This document shows, one piece after another, positions 24,001 through 27,000 of a DNA stretch of 46,537 nt. The position numbers were made by a program. Numbering within the stretch: position 1 is the first letter of the stretch; each line of letters starts with the position of its first letter. The stretch is from contig JBHIDR010000003.1 of NCBI GenBank assembly GCA_046760225.1, positions 1-46,537 of the forward strand, given 5' to 3'. The stretch is from Candidatus Aenigmatarchaeota archaeon. GTDB taxonomy: Archaea; Aenigmatarchaeota; Aenigmatarchaeia; Aenigmatarchaeales; JACQIB01.

Positions 24001-27000
24001 AGATTGAGAACGTTGGCACGTCGGCAATAAAGGACGCCACTCTTTCCCTCATGCTGGGCAAAAAGGAAAAGAAAATAGAGATTGGACAAATGAACATCAG
24101 CGGCTCAACAGAAATTTCAGAGACATTCTCACTTGAAGGATATTCTCCTGGCTCCTTTAGCATAGTTGCAGTGCTGATTGGTAACGGCATCAACCTTGAC
24201 ACAGAGACAAGGGAGTTTGAGGTTGCTGTGATTGACAACATTGACATAGAAAGGGACGTGTCAAGCTTCCTTTTCGGGAGCACAATAAAGCTGGTAGCAA
24301 CCAACAAGGGCAACACAGAGAAAGAAGCAGGAATATCATCATCTGTCTCCCAGTACTTCTGGGTGGTTTACTCGGGCCCGCAGCCAGATGAAAGGGGCGC
24401 TGAATGGGTCTGGAAGAGAACACTGAAACCTGGCGAGTCTGCAGAAGTAAAGTACAGCGAATTCATATGGCCGATACCAGTCATAATGATTATCCTAGTA
24501 ATTGCAATCTTATTCAGCTACCTGCAGGCAACAGCGCTTGCTGTGAAGAAGAGGATGTTCAGGACAATGGACGAGTATGCAATGTCAATCCTGATAAAGA
24601 ACAGGGGTGCAGAGGCGCACAATGTTCTTGTAAGGGACGTCATACCCCCTACCTTCAATCTCTCAGGCAAGTTCGAGACACTGAAGCCTGTTGCAAAGAA
24701 GACCGGCTTTGGCACAGAGCTTTTCTGGAAAATAGGAAGGGTAAGGAAGGGAGAAGAGATGATACTCCACTACAGGATAAAGCCTGTGAGCAGGATAAGG
24801 GGCACAATGCAGCTGCCTGCTGCCAGTGTGAAGGCAAAGAGAGGGGACAAGACGCTGTTCGTTTATTCAGGCAAGCCAGTAATAACAGGTGCACACGGGC
24901 CCAAGCCAAAACTCAAGGTAAAGACCGAGTAGATTTAAATAATCTACAGCACCAATTTCTTGATATCCCGCGATGGCTTAGTCTGGTAGAGCGACCGGCT
25001 GTGCGGTGAGAAAGCATGACGACACTAAAACCTATAATAGAACAACAAGGTACAGTTTCAGAAGCAAAGGCTAGAATATTGGCGAACCTCAAGGCTGATG
25101 GAAGTACATGCAGAAGCGGTACGAACTATACAAAAAAATATGAGGTACGTGATGCCGAGCAACTTAATAGGTTTGCCAAAGACCTGAAACATGTATATGG
25201 GCTGAACATAAAGCGCATGCTTAACACATCAGGAATAACAGGAATGCCCATAGAAGCTGTATACCTTAGGTCCAAATTAGCATTTGAAGATTTGCAGAAA
25301 TTTGGACGCTTCAGGTCAGAAGACTGGAATGTACCTCAGCAGATAAAAAACTCTTCCAAGCAAGTTAAGGCCGCCTTTTTAATGGCCTTTTTTGATGACG
25401 AAGGATCTGTTATCAAATCGAGAAGGGAAATACGCCTTTACTCGATAAATATTGATGGCCTTAATGAAATAGCAAAGCTGCTTGAAGAGTTTGAAATAAA
25501 GTGCAGTATACGAAGTGGTTATGGAAAACGAAGAAATGTGTTTGCCATTATAATTCGTGGCGTAGAAAACCTTGAGAGGTTTTCAAAACATATAGGTTTT
25601 GGTGTTAAGACTAAAAAAAGAAAACTAAAAAGTATGCTTTCCACTGTGGCCAAAGGCGAGCACGCTAAGTGCTTGTTGCGTTAGCACTCGCTCGGAAACC
25701 GGTAGATCGGGAGTTCGAATCTCCCTCGCGGGACCATTTGTGATTTTTATGTCCAGTATGCGAGAGCTCAGGAAGGTCTATATGCAGAACAGGAGGCAGA
25801 TAAGGAATTTTTTGGAATCAACCAAAAATAAGAATGATGGTTTCCTGCTGCAGGAGATGTTCTTCTGCATGCTCACTTCCCAGACAAAGGCAGCCAACTG
25901 CCGTGCTTCTGTTGACAGGCTGAAGGGATGCAGGGACCTCTTTGAAGCGAACATGGAAGAAATAAGGAACTCCCTTGCTGGTGTGAGGTTCGCTGACAGG
26001 AAGGCACAGTACCTTTTCAAGGCAAGGCAAAAGCTGCCCAGGATAAAGGAGAACCTTTCCCTTTCGCCATTCGAGCAAAGGGAATGGCTGGTCGATAATG
26101 TGAAGGGAATGGGCATGAAACTGGCTTCACACTATCTGAGGAACATAGGGGTGTTTGGCCTGGCTATACTTGACGTCCATGTGCAGAGGTTCATGCAGGA
26201 AAACTGGAAGTTCCGGGGAGAAGTGGGCAAGCTGAACAGGAAGCAGTACCTTGAGAACGAGAAGGAGTTCTTCAGGCTAGCGAAAAAGCTTAAAATGAGG
26301 CCGGAGGAGCTTGACATAGCAATATGGATGCTGGGCAACAGGAGCGGCAATTTCTACGGTTAACTTTAAATACCTTTGAGAAAGTAATAATCATTGGTCG
26401 CGGTCAAAACGGAGTGGCAAGATCCGTTCCCGTTCCGAAACATCCTTCAGAGAAGCTGCACCTTACCTGGAGGGTGAGGAAACACGGTAATGAATCGCTC
26501 CAGTGATCTGGACTGTACTGTGGAAAACATGGGAAATCCAGGACGCTGCGACCATAACTTTTTATTCTACCAAAATAATAGAATTTCATGGCAAAGAGAA
26601 GAAAACAAAGGAAAGTAAGCAAAAGGCAAGTCATGAGGGAACTTGCCATTGGTCTCATTATTTTAGTATCTGTGATCATACTTGCCATAAGTGCTTTTTC
26701 TGATATAATCGATCTCGTGATTATAGTGGGACTTATTATTCTTGCAATCATCATAGCAACAATATTTGCAGGAAAGGGTTCACTTGATTAGAAAAAGTAT
26801 TTAAACTGTTACTGCTCATTTCTTAAGTATGCCCGGGTAGTATGTCTTGGTGTGGCATTTCACCCGAGAGCTAAAAGTGGTCTAGTATCTCGGCCTGTCG
26901 AGTCGAGGACCTGGGTTCAAATCCCAGCCCGGGCGCCACACCAACCCCTTTATAAACCTTGATATTCTATGGGTTGTTAGGACATTTTGGAAGTTCGAAA

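Follow-up and report, generated by a model that had tools for sequence, protein, structure and literature searches.

A probable bulge-helix-bulge intron in the 5S rRNA gene of an Aenigmatarchaeota archaeon

Introduction

The 5S rRNA gene of a Candidatus Aenigmatarchaeota archaeon (DPANN; assembly GCA_046760225.1) is 159 nt long, and 43 of these nucleotides form an insert in loop C, which raises the question of whether they belong to the mature RNA or are removed from it by splicing. Bulge-helix-bulge (BHB) introns occur in genes for 16S and for 23S rRNA in Thermoproteales and Desulfurococcales, some of them carrying genes for LAGLIDADG homing endonucleases. All known archaeal introns are described as BHB introns, except for a few group II introns (PMC6125680). 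The known substrates of archaeal splicing are tRNAs, 16S and 23S rRNA and a few mRNAs, and 5S rRNA is missing from this list in the papers that can be searched. Our search of the full-text literature, a body that leaves out preprint supplements and subscription journals, returned no published 5S rRNA intron, and exact phrases such as '5S rRNA intron' occurred in 0 papers. Surveys of oversized 5S rRNAs did not take in these lineages; one of them lists 89 expanded 5S genes, from Halobacteriales and some bacterial orders and none from DPANN, and notes excision of 5S insertions as possible, with no mention of BHB motifs (Stepanov and Fox 2021, PMC7812874).

Here we analyse the locus within its window, the whole stretch of 46,537 nt of contig JBHIDR010000003.1 (forward strand). 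A first-pass annotation had read the insert as a spliced intron, and our comparison with 202 further genomes of the phylum supports this reading as probable.

Results

The 5S rRNA gene contains 43 additional nucleotides in loop C

A permissive Rfam search of positions 26300-26700 recovered the 5S rRNA family RF00001 over its full model (48.9 bits, E 2.4e-9), with 45 nt of loop C unaligned, exactly as found in the first pass (Table 1). RF00001 was the sole family returned by cmscan of this interval at E values up to 1, and this is the only 5S match in the assembly (851 kb, 83 contigs, 83% complete by marker genes). Run over the whole window with default filters and the gathering threshold, Rfam did not report the gene, which is consistent with its absence from the annotation table of the first pass; in the same window, ARAGORN without its intron mode reported no tRNA. 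We judged a group I or group II intron to be unlikely, because the insert has no match to a catalytic-intron RNA family and is, at 43 nt, far below the size possible for such introns.

Table 1 Features of the 5S rRNA locus. Window position equals gene position plus 26395; a caret marks a predicted cut.
Feature	Window position	Gene position	Strand	Basis or remark
TATA-box-like TTTAAATA	26365..26372		+	Read from sequence; ends 23 nt 5′ of 5S start
5S rRNA gene, 159 nt	26396..26554		+	RF00001, model 1-120 of 120
5S exon 1, 44 nt	26396..26439		+	RF00001 alignment; G001 blastn block ends 26439
Outer helix h, 4 bp	26430-26433 (CCGU) with 26484-26487 (ACGG)	35-38/89-92	+	Fold and own scan
Central helix H	26434-26437 (UCCG) with 26477-26480 (AGGA)	39-42/82-85	+	3/4 pairs
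5′ three-base bulge AA^A	26438..26440	43-45	+	Predicted cut after 26439
43-nt insert, no ORF	26440..26482		+	Missing in G001 and in 29 uninterrupted 5S genes of the order
Inner hairpin, helix h′ (10 bp) plus cap	26441..26476; 26441-26450 with 26467-26476	46-55/72-81	+	
3′ three-base bulge AA^C	26481..26483	86-88	+	Predicted cut after 26482
5S exon 2, 72 nt, starts CACGG	26483..26554		+	RF00001; G001 blastn block 26481-26553, first 2 nt ambiguous
T-rich stretch CTTTTTATT	26555..26572		+	Read from sequence; immediately 3′ of 5S gene

Helix II, the 5′ strands of helices I and III and the portion of loop C that ends in ..CCGAA make up the part of the gene preceding the insert. The TATA-box-like sequence lies at a distance from the gene that suits an archaeal promoter and is likely the gene's own promoter, while the T-rich stretch is a likely terminator. 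Judging from these two elements, the 5S gene is probably a stand-alone transcription unit.

The locus is syntenic with that of a genome from the same genus (G001), from the gene upstream of tRNA-Tyr through rpoH, and the 5S gene of G001 carries no insert. In a blastn comparison with G001, the first block ends at 26439 and the second begins at 26481; with 2 nt of G001 belonging to both blocks, the genome under study (G000) has 43 extra nt, which reproduces the earlier comparison. Of seven runs returned by a run search, four contain the DNA, all of them hydrothermal vent metagenomes of one study, and none of the listed runs is on record as RNA. The gene is covered from end to end, gap-free and unchanged, by contigs from three of the four runs, and two of these contigs represent a strain variant whose 12 differences all fall at 26239-26294, just upstream. 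The same samples also yielded a contig from another organism that aligns only from 26481 onwards; its upstream sequence belongs to an uninterrupted 5S gene. The 43-nt insert is real DNA.

It is very improbable that the locus is a broken pseudogene or a product of misassembly, with the working copy in the unassembled part of the genome. At the given completeness a second 5S copy is conceivable, yet the exons cover the whole Rfam model between promoter-like and terminator-like sequences, the locus is syntenic with an intact 5S gene, and the insert is identical across the contigs of three runs, strain variant included. Moreover, similar inserts occur in 20 other genomes, each, as far as found, in the sole 5S gene.

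The insert is bounded by a bulge-helix-bulge motif

All the helices of Table 1 are present in the minimum-free-energy structure predicted for the 159 nt (z -3.18), which agrees with our BHB scan. Two 3-nt bulges enclose a 4-bp central helix, inner and outer helices flank them, and the boundaries of the insert lie within the bulges; the one central mismatch is G42 opposite A82, beside the 5′ bulge. Fold and scan thereby return the exon ends and the pair counts of all three helices that the first-pass annotation had given. Our cut rule, cleavage after the second base of either bulge, gives the predicted cuts listed in Table 1. Judged in silico, removal of 26440-26482 would restore a functional RNA: ..CCGAA is joined to CACGG.. 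in a product of 116 nt, with loop C as in uninterrupted relatives. According to the Rfam structure line, the ACGG of exon 2 could pair in the mature RNA with an upstream CCGU at 26424-26427, within helix III.

A shifted register, with cuts one base further 5′ on the 5′ side and one base further 3′ on the 3′ side, has four of four central pairs and a 114-nt product. We consider it less likely since this product is 2 nt short of the consensus and since relatives pair G42, the fourth central pair being G-C in five of the six inserts found at the same site. Because the shifted register also pairs, the exact cut sites depend on the comparison with relatives.

When the 43 nt were shuffled 300,000 times, only 3 of the shuffled sequences showed, at the boundary, 3/4 or more central pairs together with an inner helix of 10 bp or longer. 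Genome-wide, motifs of like quality number 252, against 132, 155 and 167 in shuffled genomes, so that the motif alone is poor evidence and its weight lies in the coincidence with boundaries defined by alignment. This frequency of BHB-like motifs by chance and the incomplete central helix, with three of four pairs, are weak points of the predicted splicing.

Inserts with the same architecture are patchily distributed across Aenigmatarchaeota

We surveyed all 42 genomes of the order and samples of 151 genomes each of the class and the phylum, 203 distinct genomes altogether; the insert counts come from related genomes, which are not independent samples. Within the order, Rfam matched a 5S gene in 36 of the 42 genomes, seven of these genes being 147-183 nt long, and BLAST with a relative's 5S, applied to five of the six match-less genomes, found split 5S genes in G024 and G027. 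The order totals are nine genomes with inserts, four in which no 5S was found and 29 with an uninterrupted gene, a state that had first been noted in one relative. Twelve further insert-bearing genomes came from the class and phylum samples. Overall, 22 inserts of 20-394 nt (20-83 nt, except for the 394 nt of G027) are present in 21 of the 203 genomes, G000 included, at about five different positions within the 5S gene. Writing the insertion point as a caret, 12 inserts lie at CCCRU^U and one at CCCAUUC^C, both in loop C, six at CCGAA^C, which is the site of G000, and three in helix IV or loop D. The inserts are optional, with patchy presence even inside genera (G000/G001, G017/G010, G116/G162), and the insert-bearing relatives include one with a homing endonuclease gene.

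The exon bases just before the insert are paired with its 3′ end in all 22 cases, giving a central helix with four of four pairs in 17 and three of four in 5. Positions 1-4 of the inner helix are paired in 19-21 of the 22 aligned rows, with 5-7 letter combinations and 4-6 standard pair types at each position. In G171, a C-to-U change in the exon is matched by a G-to-A change in the insert (UCUC/GAGG, compared with UCCC/GGGG or GGGA elsewhere). G017 has two inserts, and once both are taken out, 40 nt match same-genus G010 without a difference; the second insert can form its outer helix only after the first is gone. At the CCCRU^U site, the outer helix is missing in 12/12 inserts, and for this reason the criteria of the BHB scan were loosened; a strict scan requiring an outer helix of at least 2 bp had missed most of the relatives' inserts.

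For a test of the boundaries, we took these from alignment to insert-less relatives alone and scored a BHB where three or more of the four central pairs were present and the inner helix had 3 bp or more, with one mismatch tolerated. A BHB is located exactly at the alignment-defined boundaries in 15 of 20 insert-bearing genes, whereas the shuffles of each insert gave one in 3-82 of 2000. Among the five misses, G003, G102, G070 and G114 have a BHB register 1-5 nt off that yields the loop sequence of other relatives, and G183 has four of four central pairs and an inner helix that begins with two U-U mismatches.

These comparisons bear on the serious rival to splicing, namely that the mature 5S rRNA keeps the 43 nt, which would then be an expansion segment projecting as a hairpin from the conserved helix III bulge at the top of the central protuberance. 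Retained 5S insertions are reported for Halococcus morrhuae, whose expansion has been observed by cryo-EM (PMC7530397), and for Thermoanaerobacterium, with 46 nt at the helix III bulge; Stepanov and Fox (2021, PMC7812874) consider loop C and this bulge to be the places with the least obstruction. Our insert does fold into a hairpin, but since an expansion segment would do the same, the inner helix alone does not discriminate. The discriminating feature is the central helix between exon and insert: expansion segments are portrayed as independent modules without noticeable complementarity to the core (PMC7812874), whereas here the 3′ end of the insert pairs with 26434-26437, and all 22 inserts pair in a fixed geometry of 4 bp and two bulges. 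Retention also leaves unexplained that the cuts predicted by the motif give back the exact consensus, that an insert with a homing endonuclease gene occupies the same site in G027, and that the insert is missing in close relatives; an accessible BHB would, in addition, be expected to be cut in a cell that has EndA. We therefore regard retention as unlikely.

The genome encodes candidate splicing enzymes

Two EndA paralogues, each with N and C Pfam domains, are encoded about 0.5 kb apart on another contig of G000 (C2). The 176-aa paralogue has 3iey_A as its nearest PDB chain and retains a Tyr and a His that align with the catalytic residues of M. jannaschii EndA; in the 163-aa paralogue the His is replaced by Gly. 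The two look like a catalytic and a structural pair. Both have Ala in place of the first Lys of the M. jannaschii RKK, a residue that we take to be catalytic, and this substitution counts against the predicted splicing. Heterotetrameric and epsilon-type EndA enzymes are reported to cleave non-canonical introns (Kaneta et al. 2018, PMC5829648). With RtcB (496.8 bits), the genome encodes an RNA ligase alongside the splicing endonuclease.

Other genes of the genome served to calibrate the cut rule. The RtcB gene contains two BHB inserts, one of them frame-breaking with stop codons, and applying the rule to it yields a 481-aa ORF with HEGYGFPIGG and GGIGYDINCG. The rule also places the introns of tRNA-Val(UAC), tRNA-Thr(UGU) and tRNA-Pro(GGG) right after position 37; these three canonical introns (37/38) and RtcB make up the calibration. 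The exact boundaries of the tRNA-Tyr intron could be fixed neither by eye nor by script. In its intron mode, ARAGORN reports introns in 13 of 21 tRNAs. The first-pass claim that introns are hosted widely in this organism is supported for tRNAs and for one mRNA, that of RtcB; 16S and 23S rRNA, both much longer than their models, are probable further hosts.

The insert could also be excised without ligation of the halves, and the 5S rRNA of the ribosome would then consist of a 44-nt and a 72-nt piece kept in contact by helices I-III. Fragmented rRNA arising from excised intervening sequences is among the outcomes considered for 5S insertions (PMC7812874), and the Rfam structure line indicates that the two halves would remain base-paired; the break, however, would fall inside the conserved CCGAAC motif, and we found no precedent for archaeal BHB cuts that stay unjoined within a mature rRNA. 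A two-piece 5S rRNA is very improbable in a genome that encodes RtcB. In known archaeal splicing, RtcB ligates the products of EndA.

A relative's homing endonuclease and shared insert sequences point to possible mobility

The 394-nt insert of G027 is located at the same CCGAA^C site as that of G000, has an 8-bp inner helix and contains an ORF of 126 aa with a LAGLIDADG_3 match (E 1.7e-11). This gene suggests spread by homing for the intron family, which occupies CCGAA^C in several families of the phylum. Searched against the genome contigs, the G027 intron protein found, besides its own ORF, one relative at 31% identity; this relative does not lie in a 5S gene, there being no Rfam 5S match and only 9-11-nt chance blastn matches, and the search thus returned no second member of a putative family of 5S-specific endonucleases.

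The G000 insert and the 20-nt insert of G162, a genome from another family of the class, share 17 of 20 aligned columns. Inserts at different sites can also resemble each other: those of G100 (CCGAA^C) and G101 (CCCAU^U), whose sites are 6 nt apart, share 43 of 52 columns, the first 13 bases included, and differ in the exon-pairing segment, which in each is fitted to its own site. The sequence context of the loop D insert of G183 is UUCCGAA, seven bases that also stand before the site of G000.

A tentative reading, which we hold to be possible rather than probable, is that the 5S rRNA of Aenigmatarchaeota is host to a mobile BHB family that spreads by LAGLIDADG homing and by relocation between nearby BHB-compatible sites. 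If this were true, ribosome assembly in these cells would always depend on EndA and RtcB, and the RtcB mRNA would itself require splicing, a self-referential dependency. The 5S rRNA would then also be the first case in which intron relocation, via something like reverse splicing, can be traced base by base.

Discussion

Taken together, positions 26440-26482 are probably a spliced archaeal BHB intron in the single 5S gene of a member of the Aenigmatarchaeota, as the restored consensus, the uninterrupted genes of relatives, the inserts elsewhere in the phylum, the LAGLIDADG-encoding version and the encoded enzymes suggest. We infer that a 159-nt precursor of the 5S rRNA is probably transcribed from the gene's own promoter; in it, UCCG of exon 1 would pair with the 3′ end of the intron, and the second CCGU with ACGG of exon 2, yielding the order helix, 3-nt bulge, 4-bp helix, 3-nt bulge, helix. 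EndA, encoded by the two paralogues, would cut after 26439 and after 26482, and RtcB would ligate the exons; the resulting 5S rRNA of 116 nt would have the universal ..CCGAAC.. in loop C. Helix III would form after ligation, when ACGG returns to pairing with the upstream CCGU. The G000 intron would accordingly be an ORF-less member of the family at the CCGAA^C site.

We found no earlier description of the BHB-bounded inserts that occur in the 5S rRNA genes of 21 of 203 Aenigmatarchaeota genomes. If they are spliced, the smallest rRNA becomes a substrate of the tRNA-splicing machinery, and standard annotation would overlook such genes, as Rfam with default filters does here. With 22 short inserts, a version that encodes an endonuclease and homologous introns 6 nt apart, these genes offer a compact system for the origin and movement of BHB introns. 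They also bear on the intron load of essential genes in genome-reduced symbionts, which here extends over 5S rRNA, tRNAs, the mRNA of the ligase and probably 16S and 23S rRNA.

Several known systems share some of these features. The inserts are like prokaryotic 5S expansion segments in their similar length, their position at the helix III bulge or in loop C and their hairpin; unlike these segments, the G000 insert pairs with the core in BHB geometry. To our knowledge, BHB splicing is absent from CPR bacteria. These are also ultra-small symbionts with insert-filled rRNA genes, some of the inserts encoding LAGLIDADG enzymes, but unlike in Aenigmatarchaeota, the 645 CPR 5S genes of a 2024 survey are reported to contain no insert of at least 100 bp (PMC11270868). 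Maturation of 5S rRNA in M. maripaludis is described as proceeding via A/U-rich motifs and not via a BHB (PMC10515664).

Non-canonical tRNA introns have a strict or relaxed BHB and are cut by EndA types of broad specificity (Kaneta et al. 2018, PMC5829648). The 5S inserts are like them in size range and motif, the CCCRU^U inserts lacking an outer helix just as relaxed motifs do, and the genome is like these systems in having two EndA paralogues, with 3iey_A nearest to the putative catalytic one. They differ in that the substrate is not a tRNA and that the outer helix comes from an alternative pairing of helix III bases.

The BHB introns of archaeal 16S and 23S rRNA are likewise similar, with the same motif, the same predicted enzymes, a patchy presence among close relatives and ORF-less mini forms alongside a LAGLIDADG form, here that of G027. 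What sets the 5S inserts apart from them is the host RNA, the lineage (Aenigmatarchaeota, within DPANN), the very short length of all but the G027 insert, and the occurrence of one intron family at two neighbouring sites, as in G100 and G101.

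Inserts in the 5S rRNA genes of related genomes

Inserts in 5S rRNA genes are found in several relatives, at the loop C site occupied in the window and elsewhere in the molecule. The insert of genome G027, 394 nt long, encodes a 126-amino-acid LAGLIDADG_3 protein. Two inserts, of 46 and 25 nt and spaced 6 nt apart, interrupt the 5S rRNA gene of genome G017 (sequence L035). The outer helix of the second can form only once the first has been removed, which suggests that the two would be spliced in a certain order. The inserts of genomes G100 (sequence L055) and G101 (sequence L053) are homologous, with 43 of 52 columns identical, including the first 13 bases, and lie at two different sites in loop C, with the segment that pairs with the exon retuned; the pair looks like a case of intron relocation. 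Three further genomes carry inserts flanked by bulge-helix-bulge (BHB) motifs within the helix IV/loop D part of the gene, and in one of them, G183, the insert lies in the context UUCCGAA, resembling the loop C site.

Features in the window, elsewhere in the same genome (G000) and in relatives
Feature	Location	Strand	Remarks
tRNA-Tyr(GUA) with predicted intron of ~690 nt	window 24967-25736		ARAGORN, intron mode
222-aa ORF inside the predicted tRNA-Tyr intron	window 25016-25684		LAGLIDADG_3 match, E 7e-13
tRNA with anticodon loop GUC	window 26862-26935		Rfam, 31.1 bits
262-aa ORF in the stretch lacking in G001	window 27277-28065		no Pfam match
Two BHB-flanked inserts in the RtcB ligase gene	G000 C35:1544-1573 and 1646-1677		30 and 32 nt; outside the window
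Two EndA paralogues	L038:1297-1788 and L038:2332-2862		G000 contig C2
5S rRNA gene with 394-nt insert	L042 (G027), about 1107-1547	-	CCGAA|C site, same as window
BHB-flanked 5S inserts, helix IV/loop D part	L068 (G183), L049 (G070), L050 (G114)		

tRNA genes and the region around the 5S rRNA gene

At the position of the long predicted intron in tRNA-Tyr, the same-genus genome G001 has only ~35 nt. The protein encoded in this intron shares 25% identity with that of the 5S rRNA intron of G027. The Rfam match to a tRNA with anticodon loop GUC is absent from the default-mode output of ARAGORN, and several pairs in its stems are flagged as non-standard. Downstream, about 1.2 kb (window about 26940-28100) is absent from the corresponding syntenic part of G001.

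Interrupted genes and the splicing machinery of the same organism

Judged from their sequences, the genes for 16S and 23S rRNA in G000 both seem to be heavily interrupted: the 16S rRNA match falls into three pieces across ~3.9 kb (C1:42935-46861), and the 23S rRNA match spans 5309 nt (C8:16724-22032), the model having 2987 positions. Across the whole genome, a scan for BHB-like motifs (3 or more of 4 pairs formed in the central helix, an outer helix of at least 4 bp, an inner helix of at least 8 bp, length 15-120) returned 252 matches versus 132-167 in shuffled genomes, or ~1.6 times as many, and further unannotated introns may be hidden among them.

The RNA ligase RtcB is itself encoded by a broken gene. 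The second of its two inserts introduces a frameshift and stop codons, and with both taken out in silico a 481-amino-acid ORF results that has motifs conserved in RtcB; the ligase's own mRNA therefore seems to depend on splicing. No description of an interrupted RtcB gene was found in a literature search that covered titles and the opening parts of abstracts. In both paralogues of the splicing endonuclease EndA, alanine is aligned with the catalytic lysine of the M. jannaschii enzyme, the first in its RKK motif; the shorter of the two is missing the histidine as well.
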